DNA of 56,113 nt. Origin: a virus (lineage: Duplodnaviria > Heunggongvirae > Uroviricota > Caudoviricetes). The position numbers and the translations under genes are program-made. Shown here piece by piece: positions 2,104-13,700 of this stretch (positions within the stretch are counted from its first letter, which is position 1; each line of letters starts with the position of its first letter). The stretch lies in the IMG/VR virus record IMGVR_UViG_2923334124_000002; one strand, given 5' to 3'. The notes beneath the pieces are model-generated. The model saw only the letters and a program-made list of their open reading frames with translations, did no database searches and was not told the DNA's origin.

Positions 2104-2162
2104 TAGGCTTCCACCACCAGCACGACAAGATGCCGCATACAGTGAACCAGTCAGTCCAGTTT

Positions 2163-2369
2163 TCAGACAACCAGTGCGTCACCTTTTTGAAGGCGCTTTA
2201 AAGCACGTTTTAATCCAGGTCGGCCTGTCCTTGTTCCGCTTAATTTATCTTCAAATATTTGTTCATATCCTGCACAAACAAGAGCGTTTCGTTGCAGATC
2301 TGTATTCTGGTCATTTGTTGATACCCTTACATAGCCAATCAGCACGCTGAATCTCCCGTCCAAAAGCAC
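2163..2369 (-). pseudogene. pin: DNA invertase (Pin/Gin/Hin serine recombinase), N-terminal fragment of about 65 aa
   Basis: LIGYVRVSTNDQNTDLQRNAL...GTRTGRPGLKRALKRLQKGDALVV matches the invertase N-terminus including the catalytic-serine region; reading frame stops after ...LVV where intact invertases continue. Confidence 0.8.
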
Positions 2370-2398
2370 AAATCATGCCATGCAGGCCAGAAACCGCC

Positions 2399-2426
2399 AT
2401 TATCTAAAACCTCGGTTTACAGGAAA
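2399..2426. other. gix/pix-like inversion crossover site (ttatctaaaacctcggtttacaggaaac)
   Basis: matches the remembered gix consensus TTATCCAAAACCTCGGTTTACAGGAA; inverted copy at 5478..5505. Confidence 0.6.
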
Positions 2427-3439
2427 CGGTAAACAAGGCTGGTAACGCCGTTCAGCGTTCCGGCGATAAAATGACCGGAGAACTGAAAATTGGCACGGTG
2501 AATGCGCTGCGAATTTTCAATGATGCCTTCGGTCTTATTTTCCGTCGTTCAGAAGATTTTCTTCATTTCATTCCGACGGCTGAAGGACAAGGCGAAAACG
2601 GTGATATCGGCCCATTAAGGCCATTCGCTATAAATCTGAGAACAGGTGCTATATCTGTCAGCCACGGGGCCAAAATTGATGGTGGGCTGGCGCTTGGTAC
2701 AGATAACGCACTGGGCGGTAATTCCATTACTCTCGGAGATAACGACACTGGTATTAAACAGGGCGGCGACGGTGTCCTTTTATTCTATTCAAATGGACAA
2801 CTGGCATTTGGGCTTCAACCCGCATCTGCTGATTTTTATAAGCGGGTTGCATATATTCATCAGGGAATAATTCCTGATGGAAGTGGCGCATTTGCAGACC
2901 AGTTGAATAATGCCACCGCGCCTTTTGTTCAGACGCAGTTTGCCTGGAATCCCACTCCTGGTGGTCTTTACGTGCCGATAGTTAAGGGCTTGTCCATTCG
3001 CAATGGACAGGGCTATCCCGGCGCGGTCAGCTTTGGGTATTTACTGACAGAACAGTATGGATTTCCGGTTCCATGTATTCATATGCGTGGCGATGGCGGT
3101 AATGATGCTTTATGGCAGTTTAACCCGAACGATAAATCCTTTATTTCACCGGGTGCTCTTATTGCGGGTGGCGTCCGTTATAACACCGATGGAAATATAT
3201 TTGGTGGGTGCTGGGGGTCAAACTTAAATGATTACCTGAATAGTTCTTTTATCAGAAATGTGCGTCTGGGAGGCAGACGTTCTGACACATTATATCGCGG
3301 AGGACTTTGCGAACCAGGTAATGGTCATGTGACAACAGGATTGCAAATTATTGGTGAGGTTGATGGAGATGACTGGATGGTGTCACGACCACTACAAAAA
3401 TACATTTCTGGTAACTGGTATAACGTTGAACAGGCATAG
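2427..3439 (+). CDS. silent alternative tail-fiber C-terminal cassette (Sv'-like, promoterless in this orientation)
   Basis: shares the ALGGNSIxLGDNDTGxKQxGDG block with the C-terminal part of Stf; starts at the crossover site; followed by its own tfa. Confidence 0.6.
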
Positions 3440-3454
3440 CCATCAGGAGAATAT

Positions 3455-3982
3455 ATGCAACATCTGAAAAATATTACCGCCGGAAACCCCAAAACCATTG
3501 AGCAGTATCAGCTTACGAAAAAAGCTGGCGTTATCTGGCTATATACAGAAGACGGTAAAAACTGGTATGACGAATTAAAAAACTTTCAGGATGATACTTT
3601 AAAAATAGCTTATGACCAGAAGGGGATTATTCGTTGTATTGAGAAAGACGTATCAACACTTAACCCTGACGGGTTAAGTGTTGTTGAGTTACCGAATATA
3701 ACAGCCAACCGTCGCGCCGATATCTCGGGAAACTGGAAGTTTCTGGATGGTAAAGTAGTAAAGCGGGAATATACAAAACAGGAACTGCAACAGCAGGCAG
3801 AGTTACAAAAAGCCGCTTTGCTTTCCGAAGCGGAGTCTGTGATTCAACCGCTGGAACGTGCTGTCAGACTGAATATGGCAACTGATGAGGAACGCACACG
3901 ACTGGAATCATGGGAACGCTACAGCGTTATGGTCAGCCGTGTGGATACTGCAAAGCCTGAATGGCCACAGAAACCAGAATAA
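3455..3982 (+). CDS. tfa: tail fiber assembly protein (alternative copy, U'-like)
   Basis: 175 aa; [14 protein letters not shown]... N-terminus and ...[10 protein letters not shown]-terminus typical of Tfa. Confidence 0.8.
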
Positions 3983-4012
3983 CAACAAATTAAGGCCCGT
4001 ACGGGCCTTTTC

Positions 4013-4546
4013 TTATTCTGGTGGTTCCGGGAATGTTACAGGAAGAACCGAGGTATCAGTTGTCTCAACCTGTTGCACGTATCGCATCCAGTTCATCAGT
4101 TGCTGTCTGTCTGAATCAGTGATAATCCCCAAAGTAAGCTGTGTTTGCCAGAACTGCGTTTTTTCTCTGGCCTGCTGTAATAATATTTTTTTCTGGTTTT
4201 CCGTCTGTAGGCGCAACTCTTCTTCGGTATATACACGTTTAATGACTGCGCCATCTTTAAACATCCATTTACCTGAGTCGTCAGCACGCCGGTTGGCGGT
4301 AATATCAGGAATCTCAACGACGCTATAACCTTCAGGGTTAAGTGTGGAGGCATCTTTGGTTATGGCAACAATAATATTATTTTCATCGTAAACAATCTTT
4401 ATGGTGTCTGGCTGAAAGTTTTTCACTTCCTCATACCAGTTTTTTCCGTCCTCAGAGTAAAGCCAGATAACTCCGTGTTTCTTTGTTAACTCATACTGTT
4501 CCAGTGTTTTAGCATTACCCGCTTTTATGTTCTTTAAGTGCATCAT
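4013..4546 (-). CDS. tfa: tail fiber assembly protein (expressed copy)
   Basis: 177 aa; paralogous to 3455..3982; immediately downstream of stf. Confidence 0.85.
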
Positions 4547-4547
4547 A

Positions 4548-7373
4548 TTAAACGCTCGCTACATTATACCAGGTGCCATTTATATACTTTTGAACGGGTC
4601 TGTAATAAACGCCCGCTATATTATCGGCAGAGTTAGACCCTGTATCCTGAACATTAATACCAGACAATACATGACCTGAAGGGCACTGGAAATTCCATGT
4701 TTGCCAGTTGTTCACTCCATAATATTGCTGTGAACCAAGTCGAACATCTTTCACATAACGGGAATCAAAGTTACCGTAATCCGAGGGGTTAACACGCCCT
4801 GTAATATTTATGGTTTTATTACTTTGAATGCTTCCGGAGACAAAGCGCATAACATGGACGTTATTAGCATAAACATCCAGATTACCATCGCCATTTTGTT
4901 TAAAGCCCGTGTCATTATCACCCAATACAATCGAATTACCGCCAAGAGCACTGGATGTTCCGATACCCAGTGCACCATTCAGTTGACCACCAGATAACGG
5001 CAGTGCACCAACATCTCCTGCTGAAGGCTTTCTGGTGGTGGTGTAAAATTCGGACCAGTCGGCTTCAAAACCATAACCATCACGGGCTGAACGATAAAAA
5101 ATACCGCCATTTTTATAATTAATCCGAAACTGAGCTGCAGGACAACTTCCTTCTCCCATATAAAAATGAATAATTAACGTTGATGCACCACTAATAGTTG
5201 CGTTATAGGCTCCGCTACTCCAGTTCCATCCAACTGCTTTATCATTCGCAACGGTGCTTCCTGTTTTCCCTAAGGCAAACGCACCAACATGACTTGCTTT
5301 TAATGTGATATCGGAGGAACCATCAAAAGCCACATTGCTTATTTTCCTGGCAGTTTTTAATTTTGCAGCTGTAGAAGCATTGCCGGATAGTTCACCAGAA
5401 AGGCCACCGCTGAATGTTTGTCGATTAGTCCAGGTATTCGCTGTACTGAGTAACGGTATTTTCTCCCCGCTTGTGCCGAGTTCTCGTAAACCGAGGTATT
5501 CGATAACGGCGGCAACGGTCGATTTCGCAAGAATATCCCGCCCAACTTTTGTCAGGGTTGCCAGACTGGCAACATCATTCCCCGTAAAATACGGAAACCT
5601 GTCTGCCGCAGTAGCAAGCCCGGCCAGCGCCGTCAGGGTGGCATCTTTCGGTTGCTTACCCGCAAGCGCGCTAGTCATGGTGGTCGCAAAATTCGGGTCG
5701 TTGCCCAACGCCGCAGCCAGCTCGTTCAGCGTATTCAGTGCGTCAGGCGACGAGTCCACGAGGGCAGCGATCGCAGCCATAACATAAGCCGTGCTTGCGA
5801 TTTGGGTATTATTCGTTCCCTGTCGCGCAGTTGGTGTTGTTGGCGTTCCGGTCAGTGCAGGACTATTTAAGGGCGCTTTCTTGTTCGTTTCACCCATTAC
5901 CGCCTTAACCGCTTTTGGCGTTGCCGCCAGTGACTCGGAAGTGCTGTTGGTCGCACTGCTGAGCTGTACTATCCCCTTTTTCGTCGTGCTCGCATCCTCA
6001 AGCGCCACGGCGGATGCAATATCCTCTGCCCGTTTTGCCGCTGTCTCGGCGCGCGTTGCCGCGGATTCCGCCGTACTTTTGCTCTGAGCTGCCGCCGTCG
6101 CACTGCCAGCTGCCTCTGTCGCCTTCGTGGATGCCGTCGTGGCGCTGCCCTTTGCTGCTGACGCCTGTCTGGTCGCCTCATCTTTTGAAGCAGACGCAGA
6201 TGATGCCGATGACGCCGCTGAACTGGCTGACGATGCGGCTGCCGCCTTAGAGGAAGCAGCATTGTCTGCTGAAGTCTTTGCATTTGTTTCAGAGGTTTTT
6301 GCTGCAGAAGCAGACCTCGCTGCTGCAGTGGCTTGCTCAGTGGCTTTGCCAGCCTTCGTTGTGGCTGTTGAAGCGGATGATGCGGCGCTTTCTGCCGATT
6401 TTCCGGCGGCGGTGGCACTGGCTGAGGCCTGCCCGGCACTTGTTGACGCGGCACTGGCAGATAATGCAGCCGCTGTTTTTGAACCTGCCGCAGCTGAGGC
6501 GCTCTGTCCCGCTGCTGTTTCAGAAGACTTAGCGTTCGTCTCGGACGTTTTTGCCGCCTTCGCGGAATTTCCTGCCGCCGTTGCCGAGGAAGCTGCACTA
6601 CTGGCACTTGATGATGCATTCGTTTCTGAAGATTTCGCTGCCTCTTTTGAGGCCGCCGCACCCCGTGCCGAGGTGGCAGCTTCTGACGCCTTCGTGGTCG
6701 CTGTGGATGCAGAAGTGGCTGCCGATTTTTGTGATGCTGCGGCATTCGTTTCTGACGTTTTCGCGGCACTGGCGCTGGTAGCTGCCGCGCTTTTTGATGA
6801 CTCTGCAGCAGCAGCACTTTTTGCTGCTTCACGGGCCTTTGTCGATGCCGTTCCTGCGCTGGAAGACGCTGACTGAGCCGACGACGCGGCCTGTCCGGCT
6901 GACGTGCTGGCGGCACGTGATGAGGCTGCAGCATCGGTTGCATGAGTTGCCGCCTCGCTGGCTGATGCACTGGCATCGCTGGCTGATTTTTTCGCGGCTG
7001 CCGTATTCTGTGCAACCGCGGAGGCGTTACGTGACACCTCTTCTACCATCTGCTCAAAGCGGCGCAGTGCCTCCGGTCGTACATCATCCTCCGTCATGGC
7101 ACCGAGAAAATCATTCAGCGTACCTGGTCTGGAACCTTCATAGACGGTAATGGTCCCGGCATGTGAAGGCGGAAAACCTTCAACCAGCAGGGTGACGCTG
7201 TACTGACCATGCTCAACATCCATGCTGTAACGTCCGGCTTCATCCGGATTTTCAGAGGCCACCGTGTTCACCACCACCGTGCTGCTGGTTCGTCTGGCCT
7301 TCAGCACAATGGTGCAGTTCTGTACTGGTTTTCCTGTGCCATCTTTAAGCACGCCAGAAATTTTTACTGTCAT
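4548..7373 (-). CDS. stf: side tail fiber protein (lambda Stf-like) with long Ala/Ser/Thr-rich low-complexity region
   Basis: 941 aa; N-terminus [22 protein letters not shown]... closely matches remembered lambda Stf; C-terminal about 310 aa lie inside the invertible segment. Confidence 0.85.
5478..5505. other. gix/pix-like inversion crossover site inside stf (inverted relative to 2399..2426)
   Basis: reverse complement ttatcgaatacctcggtttacgagaac matches site at 2399..2426 with about 4 mismatches. Confidence 0.6.
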
Positions 7374-7525
7374 ACTTTTCCACCAATAAAAAAAGCCCGC
7401 AGCAGTGACGCCACGGGCTTCAGGACAGTGTAACTTTACGTTTCCTCAAACGCAGTTCACCCCATAAGGTGGATGAACCTGCGTATCATAACAATATTTA
7501 CAGAAGATAAATCGGCGTCTGTTGT

Positions 7526-7749
7526 CAGAAACGGTATCCGATACCAACAATAAATGCATCCGTTCGCCAGTCGCCACTACCGGAACCTTCATAAGCAAGG
7601 TCAATGGTCACGGATTCGGTCGGGTTAAACTGCACGCCAGCCCCCCACGCCAGAGACGTGTTGCTGTGGCGACCGTCATCACTTCCGGTCAGCACATCGT
7701 GCGTTTTCCCCTTGTTGTCAGTTACGCGGAGATAATCCCCGGAGAAAGT
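7526..7749 (-). pseudogene. lom: lom outer-membrane protein, C-terminal fragment
   Basis: minus-strand translation ...SGDYLRVTDNKGKTHDVLTGSDDGRHSNTSLAWGAGVQFNPTESV...GYRF matches Lom C-terminus. Confidence 0.75.
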
Positions 7750-7834: not shown

Positions 7835-8584
7835 TCACTGATCTCCTTCGGTCAACGGAGATTGTATTTTCCGCATTGATTCTCCTTTAAGTTCGATCTT
7901 GATACTGCCATGAACCAGTCGATCTAGGATGGCATCCGCATGTGTGGAGTCTCCGATCATTTTGTACCAGTTTTCCACCGGCAACTGGCTCACTACGATG
8001 ATTGAGCCTCGTTGGTACATCAGATCCACTATTTCCAGCAGGTCGCTACGCTGTTCTGATGAGAGAGGTTCCAGCCCCCAGTCATCCAGAAGCAGCAGAT
8101 CGCTATTATTCAGCCTGGTCAAAAGTTTGCTGTATCTTCCATCAGCATGCCCCTGATAGCACTGTTCCATCAGCGCTTTAAGGCGATAATAGTAGACCTT
8201 GTATCCCTGTCGGCAGGCATTATGACCAAGTGCACATGCCAGGAACGTTTTACCGCTGCCGGTGGCCCCGGTCAGTAAAATATTTTGTTTCAGGGTTAAC
8301 CAGTTTCCCTGACTGAGTGAACGGATGAGGGCCCTGTCCAGCCCTCTATTGTTACGATAATCCAGCTTTGATAACTCAGCATTAAGTCTGAACCGTGCAT
8401 GTTTGATCAGACGCTCTGCCTTCCTGTTTTCACGGCAGGTTAGTTCTTCTGCTGTCAGTAATGACAGGCGTTCTTCGAAGCCCAGCTCCTGGTATGTGCC
8501 CGGTTGAGCAAGTTGCTTTTTAAGCGCATCACGGAAGCCGGTGAGTTTAAGTGCGGTCAGTTGTTCGTAAAGATGATTCATCAT
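7835..8584 (-). CDS. istB: IS21-family helper ATPase IstB
   Basis: 249 aa; Walker A GATGSGKT; DnaC-like. Confidence 0.9.
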   Translation of the reverse strand: MMNHLYEQLTALKLTGFRDALKKQLAQPGTYQELGFEERLSLLTAEELTCRENRKAERLIKHARFRLNAELSKLDYRNNRGLDRALIRSLSQGNWLTLKQNILLTGATGSGKTFLACALGHNACRQGYKVYYYRLKALMEQCYQGHADGRYSKLLTRLNNSDLLLLDDWGLEPLSSEQRSDLLEIVDLMYQRGSIIVVSQLPVENWYKMIGDSTHADAILDRLVHGSIKIELKGESMRKIQSPLTEGDQ

Positions 8585-8595
8585 TGGATCCCGTA

Positions 8596-10137
8596 TCAGT
8601 GGTAATACTCACTGCCGCGTACGTTTTCGTGTTCCATCGTGGATAACAGATCTGGTTTTGGATCCTGAACAGGTTGTTTATCCAGACCTTTTTCCAGGAT
8701 CGATTTAATACCTGACAGACGCCATACCTTTGTTTTCAGAGCTCTTGCACATGCTGCATTAAGTCTGGCTTTACTGTATTTTTTATGAAGGTTCAGGAGT
8801 CCAAGGCAGAAGCGATAGCTTTGTTCCGGATGTGGACGAGAGTTCAGTATATGAAGCACATAACTATGAGTTTCACTGCCTATGTGCCCCGCCCATTCCA
8901 GAAGACGCTCTGGCGTCCAGGTGGCATGCTGTCGATGAGCTTCAGGCATGTGCTCGTTGCGGGTACTGTAGCCATAAGTACGCTTGCGCGGGTGCACAGC
9001 AACCTCCTGCCCCTGATTGAAGAGTCTTACCAGTTCTCCGGAGATCCATGCTTCCAGTTGCTGGCCTAACAGCGAACATGGAACCGAGTAGTAATGTTTG
9101 TCGATTTCCACGTGGTAATCGGCATGAACTCTGACTTTCTTCACCAGGGTGTAACTGTAACTGGCTTCAGGAAGAGGCTTCAGTGCGGGTTTATCAAGCT
9201 GGATGAAGAGTTCTGCACGTGAATAACCCAACTTCTGCATTATTTTGTTATTCAGTCTTTCCAGCAACTCCCGAATGCGCTGATTAAGCGATGCAAGGCT
9301 GTAGAAGATCTCATGCCTGATTCGGGCCATGATCCAGCGTTCAACAACCTGAACGCCAACTTCAGCTTTGGCTTTATCTTTCGGTTTACGTGGCCGCGCA
9401 GGCAAAACTGCGACATTATAATGCTCAAGCATCTGCTGGTAGGTAGGGTTAACGTCAGGATCATACTTACATGCCCTGGATGTGGCGCTTTTCAGATTGT
9501 CCGGAACAACAAGTTCAGGAACGCCACCCAACCACTGGAAGCAGCGAACATGACTCATCACCCAGTCTTCAAGCTGCTGAGACCAGGTGGCCTCTGCCCA
9601 TGTGTAACTTGATGCCCCGAGAACAGCTACGATGACCTGAGCAGTTCTTATTTCTCCGGTCTCAGGGTCGGTAACGCCAACGGTAGGTCCACAGTAATCA
9701 ACGAAAAGTTTTTCGCCAGCTTTATGTACCTGACGCATTGATGGTGAAGTGGTTTTGAGCCATTCACGGTACATCCGGCAGTAATGGTTATAGCTGTAAA
9801 AACCGCCTGGATTACGCTCACAGTATTCTTCCCAGAGTAGCTGCAGCGTCACGCATTTATTACGCAGTTCCCGGTGTACTGTAGCCCAGTCAGGCAGAGA
9901 GTGCTTCTTCATCTTAACCTGGGTCTGAAGGAACGCATGTTTTAGTTTTGTATCATCCCATCCTGTAGGTAAGGGCCACTGCTTTATGCCAAGTTGAGCC
10001 GCCCGATTAGCATATCTGGATACAACGGAAGGGGAGATTGCAAGACTACGACCAATTTGTCGATGGCTGAGTCCAACACCGTATTTAAGCCTAAGAATTT
10101 CTTTAAGTTTTCTCATAGAAATTGGAACTGTTGGCAT
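8596..10137 (-). CDS. istA: IS21-family transposase IstA
   Basis: 513 aa; N-terminal HTH and DDE-type core characteristic of IstA. Confidence 0.9.
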   Translation of the reverse strand: MPTVPISMRKLKEILRLKYGVGLSHRQIGRSLAISPSVVSRYANRAAQLGIKQWPLPTGWDDTKLKHAFLQTQVKMKKHSLPDWATVHRELRNKCVTLQLLWEEYCERNPGGFYSYNHYCRMYREWLKTTSPSMRQVHKAGEKLFVDYCGPTVGVTDPETGEIRTAQVIVAVLGASSYTWAEATWSQQLEDWVMSHVRCFQWLGGVPELVVPDNLKSATSRACKYDPDVNPTYQQMLEHYNVAVLPARPRKPKDKAKAEVGVQVVERWIMARIRHEIFYSLASLNQRIRELLERLNNKIMQKLGYSRAELFIQLDKPALKPLPEASYSYTLVKKVRVHADYHVEIDKHYYSVPCSLLGQQLEAWISGELVRLFNQGQEVAVHPRKRTYGYSTRNEHMPEAHRQHATWTPERLLEWAGHIGSETHSYVLHILNSRPHPEQSYRFCLGLLNLHKKYSKARLNAACARALKTKVWRLSGIKSILEKGLDKQPVQDPKPDLLSTMEHENVRGSEYYH

Positions 10138-10777: not shown

Positions 10778-13700
10778 TCAGCTAATCGTGATGCCTGCAG
10801 TGGCTTTCTTCATCACCACAACCAGCAAATCGCTGATACTTGCTGTGGGATACCAGTTATTTACCAGCCATGCTGACACCGAAAACTCCAGTGTCATGTG
10901 ACCGTGACCGGCAGGCATATCAATAACACCACTGTAAATCAGCGTATTATCCAGCGCGGTACGGTTATAAATTTCAGCACCGTTTTTCCGCACTATCAGA
11001 CGGCATGAGGAGTAAATATCAGTATGCTCTTTCTCATGTTTAGCGCCGCTGAATGCCACCGCCGGAATAACAATCTGCCGGTCAAACGGCTGATCGTCAT
11101 AAACCCTGACGGTAATGGTTCCTGATGGCCACCGCTCCGGTGCACGGGAGTCCCGGGGGAAAGCTTTGCCCACTGTTTTAACGAGATCGCCTTCAATCTG
11201 GTTCGCGGACAATTTTCCCAGAACCCGACAGTTCTCGTTAATCGTGACGTTGTTGAGCGTCCCGGAGTTCGCATTCACGTTACCGCTGATATCGGCATTT
11301 TTCGCCGTCAGCCGCCCGTCCGGTGTCAGGGAAAATGCCGGAGGATTACCGCCGCTGGTAATGGTGGGAGCCGTCAGATATTTCAGGAACACTTCATTCA
11401 TAAATATCTGATCGCCCTGACCAACAAACATCGGCTTTGTGTTGCCATTCGCAGGATTAATCATCGCAATCCTGTCTGCCGCCAGCAGCACCTGACTCTG
11501 CATTCCTGCTGGCGTATTCTCAATACCGGCACCGATACCCGCAATATAAAGGCGTCCGTCCTGCATCTGCTGCAGTTTCACGGCCCACATGCTGTTCAGG
11601 TTATTATTTGTATCAACCTGAACTTTCTGTATCTGCTGGATTGCCGCACTCTGATTTTCCAGTTTTTTATTGACGGTCTGCGTGATTTCATTGCTGACAT
11701 TCGTAATGGACGTCCTGATTTCAGCCAGGTCCGGCGCAAGCTGACCGTTATCAATCTGCGTCCACAGCTCCTGGGCCAGATGTGTTTTCCCGATTTCTCC
11801 TTTGAAAAAATCCAGGTAACCTTCCGCATCATCGCTCGCCCGACCGACAGCCTCCACGAATGCCGATTTGCCAACAGTATTCACACTGCGGATATAAAAA
11901 TAATAATCATGGCCCGGTTTGATATTGATACTGGCAGCTATCCAGTACAGCGCCGAGCCAAGATAGCGGGCTGCGGTTTCAACCTGCCTGATATCCGCAA
12001 TCCGCTTTTCCGAGAACCAGAACTCAAACTGTACCGTCGGGTCATAAACGGCAAGATGTGGCGTTGCGGTTATCTGAAAATAGCCCGGCGTCAGCTCAAT
12101 CCGCGACGGTGCTGCCGGTGCGGCAATCCGGAAGGTGGTGGTGGCAGGTTCACCCTGCTGGCCATAGCTGTTTATCGCCCGCACCGTCAGGGTGTATTCC
12201 CCGAGCGGCAGGCCGCTGAAACGGTGCTCCGTGTCTGCGGTGATGGCGGTGGTCACCAGTCTGGCATCCGTTCCCTTACCACTGGTCAGGCGCAGACTGA
12301 AGCGCACACCCTTCACCACCCGCGGCGTGTCCCATTTCGCCTGCGCCAGATACTGGCCGTCAGCTGCGCTCACCTCCACCGTCAGGTGCTGCACTGCCGG
12401 TGGGATGACGCTGTTCAGGGAACCTGACTGCGGCTCAAAGCGGGCACCGTTATCCACGATGGCTTCTTTTTCCGGTACGTGCTGCACCGCCGTGATGGCA
12501 AAGGTGCCGTCCGTGTTTTCCCGGATGGAGACACAGCGGAACAGGCGACGGCGCAGTGACGGCAGGGAGAGTCCCCACACCCCGTATGTCTCCACACCAT
12601 CAGGCAGGGTACTGACCTGTATCCGGTCCGGCGCGGGGTGTGCGGTGATGTCCACACTCACCGGCTTACCGCTGCCGTTAATCAGGTTCACCGCCGATGT
12701 ACCTGTCTCCGGCAGGGTAACCTCACGGTCCAGCGTCAGGGTGCGGGTGGCAGCATCAATGGACAGGACACGTCCGCCGGTCAGGGTCCCGGCATAGTCA
12801 TTATCACAGATTTCAATAATGTCACCGGGTGTGTGCCGCAGCCCCTGAGACCCGAGCGTGAAATCCACCGTCTGCGTTTCCAGCAGTTCGGTCTTTATCA
12901 CCCACAGTCCGGCACGGTGGGCCTGACCGCGGCTGGTACAGCCGAACGCGTCCATCTTCAGCAGGTTGCGTCCGTAGCGCAGTATGGCTTCCGGGTCTTC
13001 CACCAGTTCCGTGGAGGTCTGCCAGCCGTTCTGCGGGTCGGTGTAATTCACCTCCACCGCCGTGTGCCGGTCCTTCAGGGCACTGAAGCTGTAGCGGAAT
13101 CCCACGCCGTTATCATCCACCACCACATCGCTGTTGGTGTACGGCCACACCACATCCGACGGGCGGTCCTGAACGAACGTCAGCGTCTGACCGTTCCATA
13201 CCGGCATACAGCGCATCGCAGAGCAGAAATCACTGAGAACGTCCCACGCCTTACGCTGTTGTGCCAGGTACGCATTAAAGGTCATCCGCGGCTCGGTCCC
13301 CCCGAAACCATCCGGGACCGTCTGGTCGCAGTACTGCCCGATGGCATACAGCGCCCACTTGTCCACATCCGCCGCCCCCAGACGTTTTCCCATGCCGTAG
13401 CGCGGGTGAGTCAGCATGTCCCACAGACACCAGGCCGGGTTGTTGCTGTATGCCGGTTTCAGACTGCCGTCCCAGATACCACTATACGTGCGTTTTTCCG
13501 GGTCATAGTTTGACGGCACCTGGATGATGCGACCGCGGATATGGTAGTTCACCGTCATCTGCTGGCCGCCGAACTGCTCCGCATCCACCTGCAGCCCCAC
13601 AATGGCCGTGTTCGGGTAGCACTGTTTCACATCGATGATTTCGGTGTATGACGACCACAGCGTCTTATTCTGCAGCTGGTCCGTGGTGCTGTCCGCCGTC

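Follow-up and report, generated by a model that had tools for sequence, protein, structure and literature searches.

In phages Mu and D108, the G segment is arranged as a constant fibre part, a crossover site, an exon with its chaperone gene, a mirrored exon with its own chaperone gene, a second site and the invertase gene, and the order at the locus described here is the same. The Hin/hix system of Salmonella and the Cin/cix system of P1 resemble this locus in the 26-bp length of their sites and in a conserved consensus of the half-sites; their enhancer sits near the start of the invertase gene, roughly 100 bp away from the closer site, a position that the putative enhancer at this locus would share. 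The Hin enhancer measures 65 bp, carries a Fis site at either end and is ~100 bp away from hixL (PMC3798978). PinE inverts the P segment of e14, and PinQ, encoded by prophage Qin, can do so in trans (Kirigo et al. 2025, NAR, PMC12529663). The closest system is prophage Phi4 of Escherichia coli EC958, for which Forde et al. 2014 (PLoS One 9:e104400, PMC4134206) recovered both orientations of a 3106-bp segment in the assembly of a single culture, pointed out that the invertase EC958_1582 is truncated and suggested that the Phi1 invertase acts in trans. PCR-confirmed switching in other ST131 isolates has been described in a bioRxiv preprint. The segment, the truncated invertase and inversion in trans have thus been in print since 2014, and mechanistically the system follows textbook Gin/Hin biology.

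The sequence analyzed here, referred to as the window, is the whole 56,113-nucleotide stretch of IMG/VR record IMGVR_UViG_2923334124_000002. We conclude, with a probability of roughly 0.9, that the window is Phi4 of E. coli ST131 and that its 3.1-kb Mu-G-type segment is still flipped in trans by a Gin-family invertase encoded elsewhere. Phi4, a lambdoid prophage that is close to complete, is inserted in ompW, and the window shares with the EC958 copy the trpA/ompW flanks, the truncated invertase, the 26-bp sites and the 3.1-kb segment. ST131 genomes match the locus at 100% identity. Strain JJ1886 is not the exact source of the window, as its sequence follows the window to position ~7705 and is out of register beyond it. 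Orientation alone separates it from the EC958 reference, in which the segment lies the opposite way: inversion of the window in silico at the site centres reproduces EC958 Phi4 at 8911 of 8911 positions. The half-sites of the two crossover sites are exchanged in EC958 relative to the window and have thus recombined differently in the two sequences. The features of the locus are listed in Table 1.

Table 1 Features of the invertible tail-fibre locus, in window coordinates
Feature	Coordinates	Strand	Details
Gin/pin-type serine invertase stub	2156-2347	-	codons 1-64; GTG start 2345-2347; premature TGA 2163-2165
Putative Fis-dependent recombinational enhancer inside the stub	2261-2324	-	homology and position
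Crossover site A, invertase side	2400-2425	-	TTCCTGTAAACCGAGGTTTTAGATAA as reverse complement; central dinucleotide GA; 26 bp
Silent alternative C-terminal fibre exon	2413-3439	+	phrog_454 E=6e-69; phrog_5454 E=1e-67
tfa', silent assembly (chaperone) gene of the alternative exon	3455-3982	+	Caudo_TAP E=9e-35; phrog_136 E=7e-77
GC-rich hairpin GGCCCG..CGGGCC between the convergent tfa genes	3992-4009	.	sequence read
tfa, expressed tail-fibre assembly gene	4013-4546	-	Caudo_TAP E=6e-32; phrog_136 E=2e-70
stf, side tail-fibre gene	4548-7373	-	941 aa in window orientation; phage_tail_N E=5e-70
stf variable exon, expressed in the window state	4548-5493	-	
Crossover site B, inside stf	5481-5506	+	TTCTCGTAAACCGAGGTATTCGATAA; central dinucleotide GA; 26 bp
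stf constant part	5494-7373	-	

The segment forms the terminal part of the Phi4 side tail-fibre operon. The stf product begins with a prophage tail-fibre N-terminal domain (Pfam), continues into a shaft of Ala-rich repeats and matches phrog_454 (E=9e-113). On the opposite strand, the silent 322-aa open reading frame matches tail-fibre PHROGs 454 and 5454 and reaches the C-terminal end of the phrog_5454 profile; conserved fibre motifs are common to the silent exon, the expressed exon and S of D108. When the segment is inverted in silico, the silent exon joins stf in frame to give a 968-aa fibre, which parts from the 941-aa fibre after ...IEYLGL, exactly at site B (stf residues ~623-631, IEYLGLRE). 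The locus thus has a site at the junction of constant and variable parts, as the first-pass annotation had placed it, and a mirrored in-frame exon, with a chaperone gene for each exon. This is the organization of a Mu-G-type segment, and it bears out the earlier description of an inverted silent cassette that carries an alternative fibre C-terminus and its own tfa. The hairpin between the two tfa genes is likely a bidirectional terminator, by analogy with D108, in which both strands carry annotated rho-independent terminators at the corresponding position. Just upstream of stf, ISEc12 is inserted in lom. This insertion might reduce fibre expression, and the phenotypic consequence of switching is for that reason uncertain.

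Sites A and B are two inverted, imperfectly palindromic 26-bp sites with matching GA cores, as in Fis-dependent inversion systems of the Din type (Gin/Cin/Pin/Hin), and are embedded in a 32-nt inverted repeat (2394-2425 and 5481-5512) whose arms are 84% complementary. A search of the 56 kb with a degenerate consensus returned these two sites and no others, against 0.05 matches expected by chance, and site B has zero mismatches to the consensus pattern. Site A is identical to the gin-side gix of D108 at 26 of 26 positions. Resemblance of site A to gix, on which the proposal of intact crossover sites had hinged, is complete; both sites are present, and only their limits, previously given as 2399-2426 and 5478-5505, are corrected in Table 1. 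A candidate third crossover site at 4040-4059 was rejected, as it has no more than the 11-nt core AACCGAGGTAT in common with the sites and does not fit the 26-bp consensus with up to 3 mismatches.

The invertase gene next to site A is dead. Homology to intact gin/pin stops at 2155 and a TGG codon has become the TGA stop at 2163-2165, so the gene is deleted past codon ~64 and not merely interrupted. The first-pass annotation had correctly recognized an N-terminal remnant ending in a stop. The open reading frame at 2163-2369 matches the Resolvase N-terminal Pfam profile at positions 2-69 of 145 alone, and no HTH domain was found in the stub with Pfam. The oligomerisation helix and the HTH DNA-binding domain are lost, which leaves neither a functional serine recombinase (PF00239 plus HTH) nor the adjacent intact invertase gene of a Din system (catalytic domain, E helix and C-terminal HTH). 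RefSeq likewise annotates a partial recombinase without a C-terminus. What is left of the gene is closely related to known invertases: the stub is identical at 183 of 192 positions to D108 gin and at 181 of 192 to the EC958 Phi1 invertase gene, and the spacer upstream of it at 45 of 52 to D108 (95% overall for stub and spacer). A tblastn search of the 56-kb window with the intact 199-aa enzyme matched the stub alone. As the resident invertase is dead, action in trans is obligatory for the Phi4 segment.

The earlier note had also pointed out that the surviving stub is the part of the gene in which invertase enhancers lie, and the homology agrees with this. A Fis-binding enhancer probably survives within the stub, judging from the sequence: the putative enhancer interval is identical at 62 of 64 positions to D108 gin and likewise at 62 of 64 to the Phi1 invertase gene, and the stub contains two G-N13-C 15-mers whose centres are 95.5 and 144.5 bp away from that of site A. 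Enhancers of Din-type systems act in cis and have their two Fis sites about 48 bp apart. A literature search for the coordinates of the Mu sis enhancer found the Hin description alone. The interval showed no excess conservation, with 2 lineage-specific changes in 64 nt vs 7 in the 270 nt of the gin-homologous region 2156-2425, a comparison with too few sites to decide on selection. We tentatively suggest, at somewhat below even odds, that the stub persists in ST131 and other lineages as the carrier of a Fis enhancer required in cis, and that Phi4 is an "orphan" segment that borrows any co-resident Gin-family invertase, including alleles with different sites of their own, of which the U12A lineage is an example. 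If this is true, whether the fibre of one prophage switches would be under the control of a second prophage, through its presence and expression.

Both orientations of the segment occur with the same stub. Among complete E. coli genomes, 142 carry it in the window orientation and 239 in the inverted one; the inverted left junction including the stub was matched at 100% identity and coverage, and the 239 genomes were counted at at least 80% coverage. The two orientations sum to 381, compared with 378 genomes that have the stub at at least 99% identity, which is a rough count and not an intersection of genome lists. Because the two orientations roughly cover the stub carriers, a common third arrangement, with site A joined to other prophages, is unlikely. 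Isolates from one patient also differ: U12A is in the window state and U13A-U15A are inverted, at no more than 27 core SNPs apart. In Din terms, these counts and isolates, the exact match of EC958 to the inverted window and the published mixed culture amount to actual inversion by precise reciprocal exchange.

The first-pass annotation had concluded that host range is locked in one orientation, which would make the locus a frozen relic with a dead pin. The truncation of the adjoining invertase is beyond doubt and the window holds no other invertase, both of which fit such a reading. It is refuted by the occurrence of both orientations with an identical stub, across genomes, among the clonal isolates of one patient and within one culture, and we give it practically no weight. 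The proviso attached to that conclusion, that an invertase elsewhere might act in trans, agrees with the trans action proposed for the same locus by Forde et al. 2014 (PMC4134206). Inversion could instead be a product of RecA-dependent homologous recombination across the short repeats, with no site-specific invertase. Exchange anywhere in the 12-bp identical core would yield the same product, so a cut at the central dinucleotide cannot be read from the sequence by itself. However, the arms are perfectly identical over at most 12 bp, which is far below the length for efficient RecA recombination. Against this route there are also the roughly mixed populations within a single culture despite such short identity, and the 26 of 26 match of the arms to functional gix-type sites. 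In addition, the segment contains an inverted repeat that is longer, at 40 nt (3387-3426 and 4561-4600), and that did not produce the observed alternative arrangement. We thus regard RecA-dependent inversion as very improbable.

A site-specific invertase acting in trans is the reading that we retain, and candidates for it are available. A search for intact homologues found 199-aa Gin-family invertases in all three other ST131 genomes checked (EC958, 4/0 and U12A), in a P2-like prophage elsewhere in the chromosome (between serS and aroA; Phi1 in EC958). That of EC958 shares 84.5% identity with D108 Gin. The acting invertase may be another one, such as that of Phi2 or a plasmid or phage-plasmid enzyme of the Cin/Min type, and Gin, Cin, Pin and Hin are known to complement one another (Plasterk, van de Putte, Iino and others). 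EC958 harbours another active inversion system in Phi2 (Forde et al. 2014, PMC4134206), two prophages of ST131 Bone isolates encode invertases (bioRxiv preprint), and two recombinase genes occupy the serS-aroA site of strain 4/0. Switching also occurs in the U12A lineage, which is unlike EC958 in its P2-like invertase allele (87% identical) and cognate site; the one cognate site detected there has an AA core, and the argument from near-identical sites in favour of Phi1 is therefore not general. On the other side, alignment of site B with the native stf-side site of Phi1 gives 26 of 26 identities and site A matches the pin-side site of Phi1 at 23 of 26, whereas the Phi2 sites are much more divergent (Forde et al. 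2014 Table 3, PMC4134206). We consider an enzyme other than that of the serS-aroA prophage to be unlikely, although clearly less so than either a frozen locus or RecA-dependent exchange.

Taken as inversion in trans, the history and operation of the segment would be as follows. An ancestral gin-like gene beside the segment was cut to its first 64 codons, with the two 26-bp sites kept. An intact Gin-family serine invertase from elsewhere in the chromosome, which we infer to come most likely from the P2-like serS-aroA prophage, would then flip the segment. Dimers of this enzyme would bind sites A and B and synapse with the Fis-bound enhancer, presumably that of the stub, and cleavage at the central GA dinucleotide would be followed by rotation and religation. 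In this way, stf codons 1-629 are fused alternately to either C-terminal exon (941 or 968 aa), each followed by its own tfa. Such fibre switching would be expected to alter host range.

These results bear on how similar loci are read. Invertible segments give rise to alternative contigs in long-read assemblies and to inconsistent annotation; RefSeq, for example, calls the inverted-state stf a pseudogene though its open reading frame is intact. Moreover, a dead neighbouring invertase is not proof that a phase-variable locus is frozen.

Compared with the known systems, the variable exon expressed in the window state is 86% identical to D108 S' over 93 aa (a partial match). Mu and D108 are Mu-like myoviruses with their own gin, whereas the window is a lambdoid siphovirus-type prophage whose invertase is cut after codon 64, and the enzyme for its segment must come from another element. 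The Hin system differs in that the inverted segment controls a promoter and not fibre exons. The e14/PinQ pair is alike in that a tail-fibre segment is inverted by the serine invertase of a different prophage in the same chromosome; e14, however, retains its own intact pin, which in Phi4 is dead.

The fibre region of the window is 100% identical to many Escherichia coli ST131 chromosomes and adjoins trpA and a split ompW. The window holds a nearly complete lambdoid prophage with Rha, stf, J, tail, head, lysis and regulatory genes, an integrase, and ISEc12 in lom. In strain EC958 the same element is known as prophage Phi4, described by Forde et al. (2014; PMC4134206). That work reported an invertible segment of 3106 bp, 26-bp crossover sites that equal those of the window except for swapped half-sites, a "severely truncated" invertase without HTH domain (EC958_1582), and both orientations assembled from PacBio reads of one culture. 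Based on near-identical sites in Phi1, the P2-like prophage of EC958, and in Phi4, the Phi1 invertase was suggested to act on Phi4 (PMC4134206). A later preprint confirmed by PCR that two prophages switch in other ST131 isolates, one of them a BP-4795-like prophage without an invertase gene that we assume to be Phi4. The feature is already known for exactly this locus, and its interest is therefore low. The first-pass annotation is confirmed in what it observed and partly supported in how it was interpreted.

Features of the invertible fibre segment in the window
Feature	Coordinates	Strand	Basis
stf, side tail-fibre gene, 941 aa	4548-7373	minus	ORF listing; Pfam prophage tail-fibre N-terminal domain
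tfa, assembly gene of stf	4013-4546	minus	ORF listing; Pfam Caudo_TAP
Silent ORF, 322 aa, facing stf/tfa	2471-3439	plus	ORF listing; PHROGs tail-fibre families
Second tfa, downstream of the silent ORF	3455-3982	plus	ORF listing; Pfam Caudo_TAP
68-aa ORF (invertase stub)	2163-2369	minus	ORF listing; Pfam resolvase, PHROGs DNA invertase families
Site A (invertase side), inside 32-nt repeat	2400-2425		reverse complement TTCCTGTAAACCGAGGTTTTAGATAA; fits invertase crossover consensus
Site B (inside stf), inside 32-nt repeat	5481-5506		TTCTCGTAAACCGAGGTATTCGATAA; fits invertase crossover consensus

The proposed Mu-G-type organization is borne out, with stf and tfa facing a silent exon and a second tfa. 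The silent ORF was proposed to be an alternative fibre C-terminus, and it falls with the expressed variable part of stf in phrog_454 and phrog_5454 (PHROGs, E about 1e-68 to 1e-113), the latter profile being matched through to its end. When the segment is inverted in silico with both sites cut at the centre, stf codons 1-629 (...AAVIEYLGL) join the silent exon in frame to give a 968-aa protein. In genomes carrying the opposite orientation to the window (the inverted state, as in the EC958 reference), RefSeq/PGAP calls stf an incomplete pseudogene and leaves ~1.4 kb without annotation (EC958 locus L005, 9978-11474 and 6566-7459; window 4548-7373), despite an intact ORF of 968 aa. The annotation of stf thus varies with segment orientation. 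Directly upstream of stf, ISEc12 (IS21-family, istA/istB; 7835-10137) interrupts lom, leaving lom fragments on both sides (e.g. 7525-7695), and may have a polar effect on late-operon transcription into stf/tfa and hence on fibre expression.

Repeat finding recovered a 32-nt inverted repeat (arms 2394-2425 and 5481-5512) that contains both 26-bp crossover sites, whose existence had been correctly recognized and whose coordinates are slightly corrected to those in the table. These are the only consensus matches in the 56-kb window, against a chance expectation of 0.05. They lie in inverted orientation to each other, and GA is the central dinucleotide of both. The claimed resemblance to functional gix sites is upheld: site A is identical at 26/26 positions to the gin-side gix of phage D108, and site B at 26/26 to the stf-side site of Phi1 in EC958. 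An 11-nt match to the core of site B, AACCGAGGTAT, occurs at 4040-4059 within the 3' end of the expressed tfa; it was rejected as a full crossover site because the outer half-site arms are missing, and could at most be a quasi-site. A 40-nt inverted repeat of 73% identity (3387-3426 and 4561-4600) was likewise rejected as a recombination site, since it encodes the conserved last codons shared by the two alternative fibre exons (RP[LV]QKYI[SN]G[NT]WYNV).

We aligned the invertase stub with the intact Phi1 invertase gene of EC958 and D108 gin. Across site A, the spacer of 52 bp and the 192 nt that open the coding sequence, identity to both is 95% (coding identity 181/192 to Phi1 and 183/192 to D108 gin). 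The stop at 2163-2165 arises from a TGG to TGA change and the homology breaks off sharply at 2155, so that the oligomerisation helix, the HTH domain and the remainder of the catalytic domain are all missing from the gene. The Pfam match to the resolvase catalytic domain is confined to its first half (positions 2-69 of the 145-position profile). Judged from its sequence, the stub invertase is certainly dead, as the first-pass annotation had it, and a search of the whole 56-kb window found no further invertase.

About 40 nt separate the stub from a 3' tfa fragment (1999-2116), an 89%-identical copy of 950-1067; a class I SAM-dependent methyltransferase gene (1296-1964) lies between the two fragments. 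On visual comparison, about half of the bases in the intervening 2117-2155 match, and the stretch, when translated in frame, looks like pin codons 65-80. Together these features hint that the region is a mosaic or has undergone repeated deletions. The junction of stub and tfa fragment also occurs at ~98% identity in unrelated E. coli lineages (seven non-ST131 matches, among O6:H16, bovine, pig and chicken isolates), indicating that the truncation is old and did not arise in ST131 but was spread together with the prophage module.

Wild-type invertases of the Gin/Hin kind require a Fis-bound enhancer in cis, and the Mu enhancer is reportedly located inside gin (Kahmann et al. 1985). Counted from the centre of site A, 257 bp of gin homology survive on the stub side, including two G-N13-C 15-mers (2310-2324 and 2261-2275) centred 95.5 and 144.5 bp from that centre, at codon positions that we take to be homologous to the hin Fis sites. 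The Hin enhancer is 65 bp long, with a Fis site at either end, ~100 bp from hixL (PMC3798978). The 64-nt putative enhancer interval is identical to D108 gin at 62/64 positions, in agreement with the earlier remark that enhancers usually lie in the part that is kept; within the alignment of the stub with the Phi1 gene and D108 gin, it carries no statistical sign of extra conservation. Retention of this enhancer-homologous part is a plausible reason why the segment would still work.

The segment is not locked, and the claim that host range is fixed in one orientation was wrong. EC958 Phi4 aligns with the in-silico inverted window at 8911/8911 positions without gaps, and with the window as is shows the 3.1-kb interval in reverse alignment. 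Using a 1012-nt query (Phi4-specific left flank, stub and junction) against complete genomes, we counted 239 in the inverted state and 142 in the window state at 100% identity, numbers that rest on coverage thresholds (>=80%) rather than explicit genome-by-genome classification. Their sum, 381, is near the 378 genomes with the stub at >=99% identity. U12A is in the window state and U13A, U14A and U15A are in the inverted state; these isolates come from one patient and are <=27 core SNPs apart, and U12A and U15A share a sub-cluster (Forde et al. 2019, PMC6692316). The segment therefore switches orientation over very short periods.

The counts and the clonal isolates together rule out a single ancient inversion as the source of this pattern, and the number of independent assemblies and the PCR evidence exclude an assembly artefact. 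RecA-mediated exchange between the repeat arms is unlikely: their perfect identity extends over only 12 bp, yet mixed populations occur within one culture. What holds of the locked-orientation reading is its caveat, an invertase acting in trans.

The suggested search for intact Pin/Gin/Hin-type homologues, made in three other ST131 genomes, was productive. In EC958 an intact 199-aa invertase, 84.5% identical to D108 Gin, lies in Phi1 between serS and aroA (locus L003, 4669-5268). Strain 4/0, in the window state, has two recombinase genes at this position; its P2-like prophage (locus L007, 22831-33406) is reduced to tail genes, with tail-fibre fragments between recombinases of 199 aa and 190 aa, a layout possibly produced by recombinase-mediated or other deletion. 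U12A carries a different 199-aa allele there (locus L009, 10134-10733), 87% identical to the EC958 enzyme, and the one gix-like site detected in its P2-like prophage (12391-12416) has an AA core. Invertase alleles of the serS-aroA prophage thus differ between ST131 clades (87% identical), and both Phi4 orientations occur in either background.

The identity of the enzyme at work in a particular strain is inferred. Because the U12A lineage switches too, the sites need not be nearly identical to those of Phi1. It is long established that Gin, Cin, Pin and Hin complement one another. Switching in the U12A lineage fits such cross-complementation, and also fits the recent demonstration that the P segment of e14 is inverted by PinQ of prophage Qin (PMC12529663).
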